Positions 32,901 to 41,900 are shown, counted from the stretch's first letter. The stretch: DNA of 64,000 nucleotides from Phormidesmis sp. (GCA_965248535.1 CBDFJR010000005.1:2387867-2451866); one strand, 5' to 3'. Made by a program: the numbers.

Positions 32901-35900
32901 AATCTGGCCCAGCAGATCGCCGCCGCGCTGAATTGGAACCTAAGCTAACCGCCATTGCAACAGACCGTTAGGCGCGATAGGGCTGGGCTTGAAGTTCAAA
33001 TAACTCGGCATAGAGACCCTGATGCCGCATTAGATCTGGGTGGGTGCCGCTTTCTACAATGCGTCCTTGATCCATCACATAAATGCGATCGGCCATTTTC
33101 ACCGTCGATAAGCGGTGGCTGATCAAAATCGCCGATCGCCCTTTAATCAACTGTCTAAAATTCTCATAGACCACCTCCTCAGCTTTGGCATCTAGGGCAC
33201 TGGTCGGTTCGTCGAGCACGACCAGTTGCGAATTGCGTAGAAACGCCCGCGCCAGCGCAATTTTTTGCCACTGTCCTCCACTCAATTCTTCCCCTTGGTG
33301 AAACGATCGCCCTAGCCAAGTCTCGTAGCCATCGGGCAGGGTTTGAATCACCGCATCGGCACCAGAGGCTTTAGCGGCTAACTGAACCTGCGGATCTTGA
33401 GGTGGCAACTCCACATTTCCTAGCCAAATATTGGTGTGGGCAGTGAGGTCATAGCGCACATAGTCCTGAAAGACGACACTGACCTGGCGACGCAAATCGG
33501 CGATTTGGAAGTTGCGGACATCGATTCCATCCCAGGTAATCTGTCCGGCGGTCGGTTCATATAAGCGGCAGAGTAGCTTGATCAGCGTCGTTTTGCCGGA
33601 GCCGTTTTCGCCGACGAGTGCCACCACTTCTCCGGGGCGAATGACTAAATCAATGCCTTGCACTGCCTGCCGTTGGCTGTGAGCATATTGAAAATCAACT
33701 TGATGAAACACAATACCCTGCTGCATGGGTTGCGGCACGGGCCGGGGCTGAACCGGATCAGGAAGCTTGGTTTCTAGATCGAAAAACTCATTGAGGTTGC
33801 ACAGATACAGATAGTTTTCGTGCATACTAGACAGCCCGCCGAGTAAGGCTTGCAGCGAGCCTTTACCGCGCTGTAGAGCTTGATGATACAACACGAGATC
33901 ACCCAGTTTTAGCGCGCCATTGACTGCTTGTAGAATAATGAAGCTGTAGAGTGCCAGCATCAATATCGCCCCGATCGCTTGGACACCGATGTAGACTAAA
34001 GCCTGTTGCCGATCGATCGCGAGTTTTTCTCGATGCAACTGTTTTTGCAATCGCAAGACCCATTCGGTAAAGTAGGGCCCCAAATTGAATAAGCGCAGTT
34101 CTTTGGCAAAGCCTGCCGAGGCGACAATGCTTCCTAAATAGCTGATTTGTCGGTGCATTTGGGTGCTGCGGCGCTCCCATTCATAGCCGATTTTGCCGTA
34201 TTTAAACTGGGCAAGGAGGGTGGGCAGCGTGGTTAAAACCAAGGCCGGTAGCGTCACCCAGTGAATCGTGACGAGTAGCCCGATCATGGTGATCAGCGAT
34301 AGCCCATTTTGCACCAAGGCGGTGGCGGTATACATCACATGGGTGGGGCGTTGCACCTCCCGCTGGGCGCGTTGCAGAATATTGTAGTATTCTGTGTTTT
34401 CGTAGCATTCAATATCGACGGCGATCGCTTTGGCATAGAAGCGTGCCTGCATATATTCGGTGAGTTTGAGTCCTTGCGCTTGGGTCACCCAGTTGTCGAA
34501 GGAAGAGCACAAGAGGTTTAACAGTAAGCACCCCCCCGCCAGTCCGAAGAGTATGGCCAGTTGGGGCATGATGGTGGCCCGATGTGCTGCATCCATGTCT
34601 GTTTTGATGCTGATGGTGAGCACATCGACGACCCATTTGTTCACATAGAGGCTGGCGAGGGAGAGTCCGCTTTGAAGCAGCAGTAAACTCACATGGATGA
34701 CTGTCCATTTAGGACTGCTCTGCCAGACCAATTTTAGGGCAGACAGCGATCGTATGCTGTGGCTTATTTGGCGAGAGAATTGTTTTAGACTACGAATAAA
34801 CCAACGATTCACGGGCTTAATCACTCACAATATCTGACGAGACTAAAAGAATGGTCGCAATAGACGCTCGATGTTCACGACGCAGAGAGTGACAAAGCAG
34901 AGTCTATGGGGAATAGTGTGGAAGCATGGGGCGGTTCGAGCAGCGATCGCAACCCTTGATCGAGCGACCAGCGGGGGCGAAAATTCAACGTCGATCGCGC
35001 TAGAACAATGTTGGCTTGGGAGTGTTGAATATCGCCAGGGCGACGGGCTGCAAATCGAATCGGACTCATTTCACCGGGATGGTTAGCGCGCAGGCATTCC
35101 AGCAATTGCAGCAGTGAAATCGCTACACCCGTGCCAATATTGCAAACTAAAGAGGTGCCAGCAGCGCGATCGATTTCCAACGCTTGCACAAATGCTTGGG
35201 CCACATCTTTTACGTAGATAAAATCGCGGGTTTGTGAGCCATCGCCGTAAATCGTAATCGGTAACCCCTGACTCAGCGCCTGAGAAAATCGCGAAATCAC
35301 CCCAGAATAAGCCGAATTTGGCGCTTGACGCGGGCCAAAAACATTAAAGAGCCGCAGACCGACAAAGGCAAATCCGAGCCGATCGGCATACAAGCTGGCG
35401 TAGTGCTCACTGGTTAGTTTTTGTAAGCCATAGGGTGAAATCGGTGTGGTTAAATTGTCTTCTGCGATCAGCCTTGTGGATAAGTTTCCATAAACTGCCG
35501 CTGAACTTGTAAACACCAGCTTAGGAATCGACAGCGCTTGACACAAGCTGATCACCGCGATCGTGGCTGATAGATTATTGTGATGGGTGTGAATCGGATC
35601 TGACCAAGATTCACCGACAGATGGCGTTGCAGCTAGATGGGCTATGCCATCGACTGGACTCAAAAAATCTTCTGGTTGGCAATGCTGAATCTCTTTTTGG
35701 AGCACCGACAATGAGGGATGCCGGGGCAAATGCTTTAGCGTTCCTGTGCGTAAATTGTCCACAACGGTGACACAGTGCCCTTGGGCTAATAGCGCTTCGG
35801 TTAAGTGGGAACCAATAAATCCGGCTCCTCCAGTGACGATGATGTGCATTTGGCTCTGTTCCAGTGCTTAAACGGTGAGGGATAGCAGCGAGTTTTGGGA

Positions 35901-38900: not shown

Positions 38901-41900
38901 GGAATCAGTACTCAACATAATGTAGTCAACGAAGTCGATAGTGATCTATATCTAAGCTCTTCAGGGAGTTTAACAGTCATCCGACAGTGAGGTTCTAAGG
39001 TTTACGGAAATTAGTTATTTCTCTATGAAGTTTAAAGTCTTATCTTCTGTTTGAGCGATTTCTGGTCTTGTGAGGTATACATGAACACTGCGGTTCTGTT
39101 GCACAAACATGGCTACTTAGGTTACGCCGCAGGGATAATCGGGGTTTCCTAAGAGCTTATATGAACGTATCTAAAACATTTGGCCCTTGCTTTTTAAAGA
39201 TAGACAATGTGATTGTGACAGATGATCGAGTTGTCTCAGGCAATGGAGGTGAAAATTTGTGAGTGTTCAGTTACGAGAGTGATTTAGAAAAGGCGCTAAA
39301 CTGTTGATGGACATCAGGGCGATCGTTCAACACTAGCTCCTCATACTCGATCCAGGCGTGGGCACAAAATGTTCCGTGTTCTCGCTGCACCCCAATTCGC
39401 ACAGTTGTTTTGACCCCCTGACAGCGGAGCAAAAACCAGAGCACCAGCGATCGTTTTAAGCAGTTACCCCAAATGCTCGATCGGGCGGCTAGATTCACGA
39501 TTTGAGCGATGTGCTGCAACTGAGATAACTCGGTTGGCGGTCTAATAGGGCATCGTGCCGTCAGCCAATCGAGCCAGCATTGCGTCTGCTGCAACCCTCT
39601 GAGAGATAAACAGCACGACACGATCGGCAACAACAAAAAGGCTTGCAAAAAGAGCGTGCGATCGCATGGAGGAAGCGCCATCCAGAGGTGTCCTTTACGA
39701 AAAAGTCGCTGCATGGGAATCATGACAAAGAGGTTGCTGAAACGATCAAACATTGACTTGTTTATTGTACAATATTTTGCGTAAATATCCGGATCGATTC
39801 AGCGATCTGAAGTAATACAGATCACTACCTTAACAGTTGCTCTTTCAGGGTTTCAATTTGATGGATCTTTCTTCTTTGACTCAAGGCTGTAGTGCTGAAG
39901 CTAATTTCTTGCTTGCCTGTGTCCGGCTCTATTGCAGACCCTCAGGCGCAGCAGAGATGAGATTGAATCTCGATGCTGTGAATTGGTCAAAACTGATCGA
40001 AATCGCCCACTTCAACAGCGTCATCCCGATTTTGCACAACAGTTTGAACGCGATCGCATCTCCCCATGTTCCCCCCGATATACTCACTGATCTTTCTGAA
40101 GCAACTCGTGCAAACAGCCACCTCAATCTGCTGCGTGCTAAAGAACTGCTCTGCCTGGTAGCGTGCCTAAAAAAACAAGGTATTGATGTCATTCCTTTTA
40201 AAGGACTGGTCTTAGCAGAAGTTGCTCATGGCAATTTAGCGATGCGGCAATTTGGCGATTTGGATTTGTTAGTTCGTGATCAAGATTTTTGGCAAGCAAA
40301 GGCTGCTTTAATGGCTCAGGGATATTGCACCGAAACAACCGCGATCGAAGAAGCGATCGGCTTTCGGCGCTACTGTCAAATTTCTTTGTCTAACTCAGCC
40401 CGATCGAGCAGTTTAGATCTGCACTGGGGCATTCCACCCCGGCGATTTTGGCATCGCGATCGCACCCCCACTCTTTGGCAAAATTTGCAGACCCGATCGC
40501 TAGCAGGACAGACCATTCAAACCTTTTCGATCGAGGTGATGTTAGTCATCCAAGCTATTAATGCGGTCAAAGAACCCCAGCGGCGGCCGGCTCTAAAACA
40601 GGTTTGTGATTTAGCAAAACTGATTCACGCTTACCCAACCTTAGATTGGGAGCGAGTCTGGGAGATAGCAGGTGAACTCCGGGTTCAGACACTGTTGCTG
40701 ATTAGTCTCAGTCTGGTACATCAACTCCTACAAGTGTCTCTTCCTAAAGAGATTCAAGCTGAAATTGCCAAAAATAAACGCATAGAAGCGATCGCCCGCC
40801 GAGTCAATCAACAAGTTGTTGCCAAAATCGATACGCCATCTGAGAGTTGTGACCGATGGTGGTCAGAATATTGGTATCAGCTTAAAACCCTCGATCGAGG
40901 CTGGCATGGGGGAGTGATGATCTTACAAGAGTTGGGCATCAGGCTGATCGAGATTGGCAGGCGGATGACTCCTAATGAGCACGATTTACAGATGGTATCT
41001 CTGCCCGCTTCTCTGCATTTTGTCTACTACTTTTTGCGCGTTTTGAGAGTGGCGAGTAAATATCTCTCTTAGCTTCCTACGGGCTTTTTTGGCACAATCA
41101 GGGGCTGTGTCGCCCATTATGAATACAGGAAAAAAGTTCAGCATTTGGACATCCTGCTCTTGACGACTATTGAGATTGAGTAGACTTTACGATCGTGCCA
41201 TTCCCAATGTACTAATCTGGAGATCACAACGTCCTTATCTGTTCGGCTCATGACTGTCTCAAAACCCGCTTCAAATTCCGTTGGTGACCTCTCGCTGGCT
41301 GCGTTGGCGCAAAAAACTCAGACGGCTGCTCGTCATTTAGCCACGCAACCCACCGAGGTGAAAAATCGGGCGATCGCTGCCATCGCTGATGCTCTAGAAG
41401 CCAACAGTGCCGAAATTCTCGCTGCCAATGCCGCAGACTGTGAAGCAGCCAAACTAGCGGGAATCGCCCCCGCTCTCTATGCGCGACTGAAGCTTGACGA
41501 AGCGAAATTGAAGGGAGCGATCGCTGGGGTGCGTGATGTGGGCAAGTTGGCAGACCCGATCGGGGTCATTCAACTCGATCGCGAATTGGATGAAGGGCTG
41601 ATTCTCAAGCGAGTCACTTGCCCGTTAGGGGTGCTAGGCGTGATTTTTGAGGCGCGACCCGATGCCGTGATGCAGATTTCGAGTTTGGCGATTAAGTCAG
41701 GAAACGGCGTGATTCTCAAAGGTGGCAAAGAGGCGATTCAGTCTTGCGAAGCTTTGGTGACAGCGATTCATCAAGGGTTAGCGCAAACAGAAATTGATCC
41801 ATCAGTGGTGCAACTTTTAACTACGCGAGAAGAAACGCTAGAGTTATTAAAACTCGATCACTTTGTGGATTTAATTATTCCGAGAGGATCAAATTCATTT

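Follow-up and report, generated by a model that had tools for sequence, protein, structure and literature searches.

The window analysed here is a stretch of 64 kb from the genome of Phormidesmis sp., in which ORF listing and profile searches reveal, at 32968-41072, a nine-part gene set of the lasso-peptide type (Table 1). All the genes that an earlier note had named at this locus are present at the positions it gave, as judged from reading frames and profile scores, but its list missed the GalE-like epimerase.

Table 1. Features of the cluster, with coordinates along the window
Feature	Position	Strand	Evidence
ABC exporter, MsbA-like, permease + ATPase	32968..34824	-	PF00005 (ABC_tran) 117.5 bits
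GalE-like NAD-dependent sugar epimerase	34875..35849	-	PF01370 188 bits
HprK-like peptide kinase	35868..37016	-	TIGR04352 40 bits (cut-off 200); PF07475 29.9 (cut-off 33.3)
Precursor peptide	37051..37227	-	ORF, lasso-type leader, Ser/Thr-rich core
GT4 glycosyltransferase, RRE-associated subfamily	37340..38569	-	PF00534 60.6 bits
PqqD-family RiPP recognition element (RRE; lasso B1)	38595..38918	-	PF05402 40.5 bits (cut-off 23.4)
Intergenic gap between B2 and B1, 352 bp	38919..39270		ORF listing
Lasso B2 leader protease, transglutaminase-like Cys protease	39271..39753	-	NF033537 80.4 bits (cut-off 33)
PF14907 (NTP_transf_5) nucleotidyltransferase-fold enzyme, PsmN/LppN-like	39837..41072	+	177.9 bits; divergently transcribed

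The exporter scores 299 bits on the MsbA model TIGR02203, under its cut-off, carries no C39 peptidase domain and is 49-53% identical to the exporters of the Nostocaceae clusters described below. The epimerase (188.6 bits on the galE model TIGR01179, cut-off 262) is a cluster member conserved in relatives: orthologues 63-64% identical lie at the equivalent position in two of them (L043 and L044), and short remnants only are present in two others (L042 and L045). The kinase, whose true start is probably Met31 (about 36926), has a P-loop, G-x-S-G-A-G-K-S-T, and a D-D pair that do not vary among 20 kinases; it matches the HPr kinase structures 1ko7 and 1jb1 weakly, and four Nostocaceae orthologues score 33.8-35.8 on PF07475, over the cut-off. 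The B1 protein had been described as lying below curated cut-offs, which holds for the lasso-specific PqqD models (35.7-36.9 bits) but not for PF05402, and its matches in the PDB are lasso RREs (9x90_B, TbiB1 and TfuB1). The B2 protein (76.4 bits on PF13471) has the Cys and His that are invariant among 15 B2 proteins. It is nearest to the B2 of cyclase-bearing clusters (45% identity in L059, 39% in L046) and, since it is just 26-31% identical to the B2 of the Nostocaceae clusters, the gene set is a mosaic. Asp141 and Asp143 of the PF14907 enzyme (G-D-L-D motif) are invariant among 14 sequences, as are Asp293 and Glu301 of the GT4 among 32; the alignments show the catalytic motifs intact in kinase, B2, nucleotidyltransferase and GT4. 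Pfam and NCBIfam searches gave no signal-peptidase match among the cluster proteins.

The precursor gene, preceded by a strong ribosome-binding site (AAAGGAG), encodes 58 aa from the first ATG or 56 aa from the second, and no further peptide of this kind was found in the genome. Its leader is typical, as reported before, with Y-x-x-P, G-L-T-Q and a Thr at -2, a pattern common to the cyclase-bearing cyanobacterial precursors; on NF033528 (lasso_cyano) the peptide scores 17.2 bits (cut-off 33). Placing the cut site solely by the Thr(-2) rule yields a core of 32 residues, 53% of them Ser or Thr and, again in agreement with the earlier note, none of them Asp or Glu. Lasso rings close at core positions 7-9. 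Comparison with 17 related peptides from eight Nostocaceae loci (18 peptides and nine loci with the window) shows the same leader and the same G-G-S-G ... T-T core start throughout, the conserved region comprising the leader and the first 11 core residues and the remaining core being hypervariable. No Asp or Glu precedes core position 17 in any of the 18 precursors, and nine cores are wholly devoid of both; the peptide sequences support the conclusion that none of the 18 precursors from the nine loci could form a lariat. The Ser5 of G-G-S-G is invariant in all 18, and the C-terminal Ser that is phosphorylated in paeninodin-type peptides is absent from these cores.

The cluster is without a cyclase, both locally and genome-wide. 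No Asn_synthase match was obtained among the nine cluster proteins, tblastn with 16 cyanobacterial cyclases against the whole window gave no match at E <= 0.01, and the gap between B2 and B1 contains neither a cyclase remnant nor an ORF of 40 aa or more. Throughout the genome, which is 99.76% complete, PF00733 and NF033535 recovered only ordinary or broken asparagine synthases, reaching at most 115 bits on NF033535 against a cut-off of 525, and our own cyclase HMM gave at most 146 bits, so that the absence claimed earlier stands. It is also unaffected by a second Asn-synthase-like gene that had gone unmentioned (G000:C2:944893-946630), which is frameshifted and spread across two frames: its two parts score 115 and 44 bits on NF033535, an ordinary asparagine synthase model fits better (200 bits), and no lasso genes surround it. 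The lack of a cyclase, together with the lack of any lariat-capable precursor (0/18), argues for a linear, leader-cleaved peptide with phosphate and sugar decorations as the best reading, as had been proposed, and we regard it as probable that the locus encodes a lasso-derived RiPP pathway without macrolactam cyclase, the product of which would be Ser/Thr-rich.

The cyclase-free set is found again in eight Nostocaceae loci, within contig limits, which bears out the claim that it is shared with relatives. Seven of them, from Nostoc, Desmonostoc and Cylindrospermum, are the closest to the window by kinase, at 46-49% identity rather than the 48-49% given earlier, and the eighth came from a separate search. 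Contig permitting, these sister loci hold B1, GT4, kinase, a GT2, B2, exporter and nucleotidyltransferase, in an order relative to which that of the window is rearranged. The earlier note had worked with narrower flanks and allowed for a distant cyclase; none is present within up to 10 kb on either side of the kinase in six of the eight loci, the flanks of the other two (L062 and L066) being shortened by contig ends. When 80 kinase loci were recounted with flanks of 10 kb and HMMs of our own, a cyclase (threshold set by us at 200 bits, the 52 neighbouring genes counted scoring 212-978) was present at 52 loci, B1 at 61, B2 at 52, the nucleotidyltransferase at 47 and GT4 at six, where 33, 64, 35, 46 and six had been reported. 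The kinases of the cyclase-free group form one clade (SH-aLRT 99) amid cyclase-bearing lasso clusters. The clade with which it groups (SH-aLRT 87) comprises seven cyanobacterial loci, of which five have a cyclase and two lack one, and a cyclase is present in all four next-closest loci and in 11 of 12 more distant ones. The cyclase-free state is thus likely to be derived, by secondary loss; that it was lost rather than gained is something we infer, because the tree is unrooted (midpoint rooting was used for drawing only) and the support for the link to the cyclase-bearing sister clade is just 87.

Relatives of the phosphorylated lasso peptides that do without a cyclase have been described in May 2026 by Popov et al. 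(Nat Commun; PMC13381572) under the name "linear polyphosphorylated peptides" (LPP); they come from Bacillota, an example being the lpp cluster of Paenibacillus alginolyticus, and the proposal of an altogether new RiPP class therefore does not hold. By the defining gene set of that paper, the window shares with LPP clusters a YxxP-leader precursor, a stand-alone RRE, a kinase resembling HprK, a PF14907-type NTP transferase and an exporter resembling MsbA, without macrolactam cyclase; the LPP product is linear and has its polyphosphate on a Ser near the N-terminus of the core, not far from where the leader is cut, a position for which Ser5 would be the candidate here, and LPP RREs belong to an LppB clade. 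The two differ in the leader peptidase, for which LPPs use LppS, a SipW-like signal peptidase I cutting after Thr(-1), and the window a lasso B2 with Thr at -2; in the host, LPPs being stated to be restricted to Bacillota (PMC13381572); in the core, here Ser/Thr-rich with its conserved G-G-S-G ... T-T start; and in the RRE-adjacent GT4 and the epimerase, to which the Nostocaceae add a GT2. Further glycosylation of LPPs was predicted by their authors, and LppN, which in LPPs corresponds to the PF14907 enzyme, showed no activity in the heterologous system of that study (PMC13381572).

Lasso peptides of the paeninodin/pseudomycoidin type, which are phosphorylated and glycosylated, share with the window B1, B2, the HprK-like kinase, a PsmN-like nucleotidyltransferase and the ABC exporter and differ by three features absent here, namely the cyclase, the acidic ring acceptor and phosphorylation at a C-terminal Ser (PMC6993621). 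PsmN is required for the addition of a hexose to phospho-Ser, its activity needing an Asp pair that matches Asp141/Asp143 of the window enzyme (PMC6993621), so that the only homologue studied has another activity than the nucleotidylation suggested in the earlier note. Nor are glycosylated products unprecedented, as had been supposed: pseudomycoidin is one, and in davasins a dedicated glycosyltransferase, IgtG, decorates a Ser of a lasso-family peptide, although IgtG acts on the mature lariat and a cyclase is present there (PMC11912497). The kinase-bearing cyanobacterial lasso clusters of the neighbouring kinase clade (L046, L048, L093, L114 and L070; 35-41% identity) have the same leader pattern, B1, B2, exporter and PF14907 enzyme, whereas most of their cores carry Asp or Glu at positions 7-9 and an Asn-synthase-like cyclase takes the slot, flanked by the B genes and the precursor gene, that GT4 fills here. 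Glycocins such as sublancin are ribosomal peptides in which glycosylation, mostly on Cys and by SunS-type GT2 enzymes, is the main modification, and they are not known to involve a PqqD-type RRE, B2 or kinase; no GT2 is present in the window, where the GT4 goes together with an RRE. All together, the gene content suggests that the Bacillota LPPs have in this system a counterpart that is cyanobacterial, of the B2 type and equipped with a glycosyltransferase.

Homology of all the parts allows us to propose the following steps. The B1 element would bind the Y-x-x-P leader and the HprK-like kinase would phosphorylate a core serine, for which the invariant Ser5 is, by conservation, our best guess. 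The PF14907 enzyme might then add a hexose onto the Ser phosphate, as PsmN does in pseudomycoidin, where phosphate likewise precedes hexose (PMC6993621). The RRE-coupled GT4 would O-glycosylate threonines, the recurring T-T doublets being likely sites, with a UDP-sugar from the epimerase as donor; B2 would cleave two residues past the conserved Thr and the MsbA-like pump would export the product.

The GT4, probably of 400 aa from a start at about 38542, is predicted with a pLDDT of 93 to adopt a retaining GT-B fold, and the folds nearest to the model (sucrose-phosphate synthase, BshA, MshA) suggest a generic retaining GT-B enzyme, with no indication of the acceptor. Orthologues at 48-50% identity occur in five of 400 other cyanobacterial genomes, the next best match being at 29%, and in all six cyanobacterial genomes that have it the gene adjoins a PqqD gene. 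In each of the eight loci where the contig extends far enough (the window and seven of eight sisters), the GT4 gene stands between those for B1 and the precursor. Among 26 metagenome loci, 14 have PqqD in the short locus of GT4, adjacent or one to two genes off, the other 12 being short or truncated contigs. An RRE, GT4 and a leader peptide also occur together without a kinase (L142, L147, L148 and L161), L142 and L147 having further glycosyltransferases and a peptide of T-P-Q-T-T-A-K repeats. The GT4 belongs to an RRE-coupled subfamily, new within the literature searched and also found in such "glycosylation-only" clusters with Thr-rich repeat peptides. More tentatively, the RRE-adjacent GT4 might mark an undescribed class of leader-guided, heavily O-glycosylated, Thr-rich linear, mucin-like RiPPs, which would span several cyanobacterial lineages and, through GT4 homologues, other phyla. 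Its simplest form would be the clusters of the L142/L147 type, and the window cluster a hybrid of this glycosylation module with the kinase/PF14907/B2 module known from phosphorylated lasso peptides, in which GT4 would have displaced the cyclase from its slot.

It could be argued that GT4, epimerase and exporter build or export an envelope or extracellular glycan, with the peptide as its carrier or primer, or unrelated, and no small natural product being secreted. The exporter is indeed similar to MsbA and HepA-type glycan/lipid pumps, the nearest GT4 folds use small phospho-sugar or polysaccharide acceptors, and LPP clusters lie in capsule loci, with a biofilm role suspected by the authors (PMC13381572). 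We nevertheless find this unlikely in view of the constant pairing of GT4 with PqqD in cyanobacterial genomes, the metagenome loci with PqqD or leader peptides, and the flanks of the eight sister loci, which are unrelated and contain no polysaccharide genes; it bears, moreover, on the role more than on the chemistry. The chances are slimmer that the peptide is modified by a plain LPP-like pathway of kinase, PF14907 enzyme, B1, B2 and exporter alone, with GT4 and epimerase as passengers: LPPs manage with a core set that includes no dedicated glycosyltransferase (PMC13381572) and PsmN alone gave hexose addition in E. coli (PMC6993621), but the fixed place of GT4 between B1 and precursor and the kinase-free clusters speak against it. 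That the cluster is a decaying lasso-pathway relic without product would fit the absent cyclase, the fragmentary epimerases of two sister loci and the rearranged gene order, yet seems very improbable: none of the nine parts is disrupted and their catalytic motifs are preserved, several genera retain the set at about 48% identity, and each sister locus has one to three precursor genes, in which the leader hardly varies while the cores have diversified. A true lasso pathway with its cyclase encoded elsewhere or of an unrecognised family is scarcely credible with the acid-free core and the completeness of the genome, even though the split gene, itself broken and closer to asparagine synthases, shares 26-31% identity with lasso cyclases of cyanobacteria and two sister genomes (G162 and G032) have a second kinase locus, that of G162 with a confirmed cyclase.

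The preferred reading thus remains a linear, leader-cleaved peptide that would carry phosphate and sugars. Peptides of this kind were not reported until 2026, and then from other bacteria. Within the searchable literature, what is new is that a lasso B2 protease persists without a cyclase, standing in for the SipW-like peptidase, that the host is a cyanobacterium and lies outside Bacillota, and that a GT4 is coupled to the RRE.

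The cluster comprises nine parts spanning window positions 32968-41072, the B2-B1 gap being counted, with eight of them on the minus strand and the gene of the PF14907 enzyme, a PsmN/LppN-like nucleotidyltransferase, divergent. Its order is B2-B1-GT4-A-K-epimerase-D, as against the canonical B1-B2-C-A-K-D (B1, PqqD-type RRE; B2, lasso leader protease; A, precursor; K, kinase; D, exporter), and the GT4 glycosyltransferase is therefore found in the slot of the cyclase (C). An earlier note had described this locus as a lasso-type cluster without cyclase, and that description is borne out, since parts, leader and acid-free core are seen as described; its gene list left out the GalE-like epimerase. 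The flanks are unrelated: proA borders one end of the cluster, a response regulator with a hybrid histidine kinase the other. The signalling unit adjoining the exporter gene (window 30052-32948) consists of a hybrid PAS histidine kinase with a receiver domain, a single-domain response regulator and a third ORF that we take to be CheR-like, and it is not kept beside the eight Nostocaceae loci with the same cyclase-free gene set (the sister loci). A strong ribosome-binding site, AAAGGAG, serves the precursor; a scan of promoters and terminators gave fewer sites than in shuffled sequence.

Parts of the cluster and two kinase-free relatives (window positions unless a locus is named)
Feature	Position	Strand	Remarks
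B2 protease	39271-39753	-	NF033537, 80.4 bits (cut-off 33); first in transcription order
B2-B1 gap	352 bp		between B2 and PqqD/B1
PqqD/B1	38595-38918	-	PF05402, 40.5 bits (23.4)
GT4 glycosyltransferase	37340-38569	-	between B1 and precursor
Precursor, 58 aa	37051-37227	-	
HprK-like kinase	35868-37016	-	
GalE-like epimerase	34875-35849	-	
MsbA-like ABC exporter	32968-34824	-	last in transcription order
PF14907 nucleotidyltransferase	39837-41072	divergent to other genes	177.9 bits
L142 (G196:C58)	7246-12498		kinase-free: PqqD RRE, GT4, GT34-like, GT2_4-type, T-P-Q-T-T-A-K peptide
L147 (metagenome contig)	3869-9215		kinase-free: same enzyme types as L142; GT2_4-type fused to second GT4

The only leader-type peptide of the genome carries Y-x-x-P and G-L-T-Q in its leader, followed by a core of 32 residues, 53% of them Ser or Thr and none Asp or Glu. 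Together, the window and the sister loci encode 18 peptides, in which the leader is near-invariant (Y-x-x-P-x-[LF]-x-A-H-G-x-I-[SA]-G-L-T-[QE]) and has the spacing of the cyclase-bearing cyanobacterial lasso precursors; unlike in the latter, conservation reaches into the core. All 18 cores share G-G-S (positions 3-5) and T-T (positions 10-11); beyond this doublet they are hypervariable, and their lengths range over 16-32 residues. No Asp or Glu precedes core position 17 in any of them, and half (9/18) have none at all. The C-terminal Ser at which paeninodin-type peptides are phosphorylated is absent from all 18 cores.

The search for a cyclase gave a consistent picture. No protein of the cluster matches Asn_synthase, tblastn with 16 cyanobacterial lasso cyclases against the 64-kb window yields nothing at E <= 0.01, and no cyclase remnant is found in the B2-B1 gap or the rest of the window. 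Across the genome, which is 99.76% complete in 5 contigs, PF00733 gives two strong gene matches and two weak ones of 22-26 bits. The first strong match is an ordinary asparagine synthase of 617 aa. The second (G000:C2:944893-946630; L011 8891-10598, minus strand) is split into two frames of 453 and 129 aa, is devoid of the usual N-terminal start, and lies among an RND efflux operon, a hybrid histidine kinase and sucrose synthase. On the cyanobacterial model for lasso cyclases, which has a cut-off of 525, this gene scores 115 and 44 bits, as against 200 bits on the model of glutamine-hydrolysing asparagine synthase. Its identity is 26-31% with lasso cyclases and 33% with the AsnB of the same genome, and we take it to be probably a disrupted paralogue of asparagine synthase rather than a lasso cyclase. 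On an HMM built from 16 cyclases, on which we set our own threshold of at least 200 bits for counting a cyclase, the two strong matches reach 146 and 97 bits, as compared with 212-978 bits for the 52 kinase-adjacent genes taken as cyclases. The earlier claim that the genome has no lasso cyclase thus stands, although the second, split gene had gone unmentioned. The genome has one each of such a kinase, B1, B2, PF14907 gene and GT4. A cyclase acting in trans was rejected, because both the enzyme and a ring acceptor are missing; cleavage of the double-glycine type by the exporter was likewise discarded, as the pump has no peptidase domain.

Relatives place this absence in context. A kinase search of 400 other cyanobacterial genomes found matches in 32, among them four full-length ones at 46-47% identity from one family. 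These four loci share the order B1, GT4, one or two precursors, kinase, GT2, (epimerase), B2, exporter and PF14907 (in L045, B2 was located by a stop-to-stop HMM search), have unrelated flanks, and show no Asn_synthase in the 20 kb around them. The next-closest kinases (35-41% identity) come from four loci, each with a cyclase, which is also present in 11 of 12 more distant ones. In the named genome collection, a single-kinase query found no relative and a kinase-alignment query 80 loci; the top seven are indeed from Nostoc, Desmonostoc and Cylindrospermum, as the earlier note had stated for its seven closest, three of them being redundant with loci already in the set. Within 10-kb flanks, 52 of the 80 have a cyclase and six a GT4. 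Non-redundant kinase loci number 97, 52 of which have at least 8 kb on each side: 41 with a cyclase, six of the GT4 group and five with neither. In a kinase tree of the 97 (IQ-TREE, LG+G4, quick search; unrooted, the midpoint root serving the drawing alone), a single clade (SH-aLRT 99) unites the window with the eight Nostocaceae loci; it groups (support 87) with another that contains five cyclase-bearing cyanobacterial loci and a cyclase-free Calothrix/Rivularia pair. Cyclase loss would be the simplest reading of this unrooted tree.

The pair, L071 (Calothrix sp. CSU_2_0, 9929-16654) and L069 (Rivularia sp.), forms a kinase clade adjoining the cyclase-bearing group. Neither cyclase nor B1 is found within 10 kb in L071, where a 580-aa open frame matches our B2 and PF14907 models and may be a fusion of the two. 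Among other relatives, L048 (G344:C36, 3497-19119) is a large composite locus with two cyclases, two kinase-like genes, B2, a P450, three methyltransferases, a Nif11-domain ORF, a GT41-like enzyme, an exporter and a PF14907 gene. L060, a canonical lasso cluster, encodes next to its exporter a protein of 408 aa whose C-terminal part is a PqqD domain (12305-13531), besides a discrete B1.

Identity to other clusters differs between the parts. The kinase, GT4, B1, exporter and epimerase of the window are 46-64% identical to those of the sisters. Its B2 shares 26-31% with theirs and 45% and 39% with those of two cyclase-bearing clusters (L059, whose genome belongs to the family of the present one, and L046); as it also lies at the other operon end than in the sister clusters, the cluster is a mosaic. 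In some sisters the epimerase is either dispensable or in decay, since L042 (about 8414-8518) and L045 (about 8506-8592) keep only short fragments (72-82 bits); in L043 and L044 an intact GalE-like gene occupies that place.

The RRE-coupled GT4 family is the most interesting new element of the cluster. Full-length orthologues (48-50% identity; next best 29%) occur in five of the 400 other cyanobacterial genomes, four of which are those of sister loci. The fifth, L142, a cluster of the Pannus type, has no kinase match; its PqqD gene is followed after 5 bp by GT4, then by the GT34-like enzyme and a peptide with a Y-x-x-P leader, in which Asn replaces Thr at -2 and the core consists of T-P-Q-T-T-A-K repeats. 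Our HMMs detect no B2, kinase, PF14907 gene or exporter in L142. Further kinase-free clusters are present among the metagenome loci (L147, L148, L161); in L147 the repeat peptide, again with a Y-x-x-P leader, lies upstream of the RRE. Neither B2 nor a PF14907 gene, a cyclase or an exporter lies in the flanks available for L142 and L147. In a large protein database the subfamily has 73 cluster representatives at E <= 1e-20, its range including Leptolyngbya, Pannus, Iningainema and Anaerolineae. A PqqD gene is found in 14 of 26 metagenome GT4 loci, adjacent or one to two genes off, the other 12 being short or truncated contigs. T-T doublets are common to all GT4-associated cores, the window core having five. 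The GT4 model (pLDDT 93) shows the fold of a generic retaining GT-B enzyme, nearest to sucrose-phosphate synthase, BshA and MshA, and this predicted fold is uninformative about the acceptor; D293 and E301 do not vary across 32 sequences. Complex prediction of GT4 with B1 scored 0.02 and 0.06 (mark 0.32) and was counted neither for nor against an interaction. On the 2.2-kb metagenome contig L154 (1-2215), a cyclase end is followed by a precursor whose core has Glu at position 8, and then by a GT4 of this subfamily, encoding a candidate glycosylated true lasso peptide; this gene content suggests that the subfamily also serves true lasso peptides.

A number of published systems bear on the function of the cluster. 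According to the article text of Popov et al. (Nat Commun 2026, PMC13381572), the linear polyphosphorylated peptides (LPP) of Bacillota, to which the authors restrict the family, receive several phosphates on core Ser3 from a kinase, LppK, inactive on Thr or Tyr variants of the target Ser; the leader is cut after Thr(-1) by a SipW-like signal peptidase, and the NTP transferase had no activity in the authors' host. In pseudomycoidin, as described in the text of PMC6993621, PsmN is needed for one or two hexoses on the phosphorylated Ser, and a D134A/D136A mutant is inactive; the window PF14907 enzyme retains the matching G-D-L-D motif, invariant in 14 sequences. A PDB sequence search gave no match for this enzyme and only a chance match for B2. 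Davasins are reported as lasso peptides with a dedicated glycosylating transferase (PMC11912497). The earlier interpretation, a linear decorated peptide from an offshoot of the lasso pathway, is thus right in substance but not new, the concept having been in print since May 2026 (PMC13381572). In the full-text literature searched, which took in neither subscription journals nor bioRxiv supplements nor the supplement of PMC13381572 (where clusters with B2 or from outside Bacillota might be listed), we found no B2 kept without a cyclase and no RRE-coupled GT4.

All together, we propose a pathway in which the leader would be bound by B1 and the invariant Ser5 phosphorylated by the kinase, a target suggested by the rejection of Thr and Tyr variants by LppK and by Ser5 being the sole serine common to all 18 cores. 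The PF14907 enzyme would then place a hexose on the phosphate, and GT4 would glycosylate the T-T sites, its UDP-sugar being epimerised by the GalE-like enzyme. B2 would cleave after the residue following Thr, and the pump would export the product. We regard this six-step scheme as a whole as likely, and are least sure of the GT4 acceptor and of the nature of the product, either a free peptide or a component of the cell envelope.

With its eight genes, the cluster is compact and has close natural variants, some of them free of the kinase and some equipped with a cyclase, which could be used to dissect the role of the PF14907 enzyme, a point left open in the text of the LPP study (PMC13381572). 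If our scheme is true, it would also offer a tool for leader-guided peptide glycosylation, for which the variable cores of the natural substrates suggest tolerance. It would further mean that linear relatives of phosphorylated lasso peptides extend beyond Bacillota, that the lasso leader protease B2 is able to work in a lariat-free pathway, and that a PqqD-type recognition element is able to recruit a GT4 glycosyltransferase.
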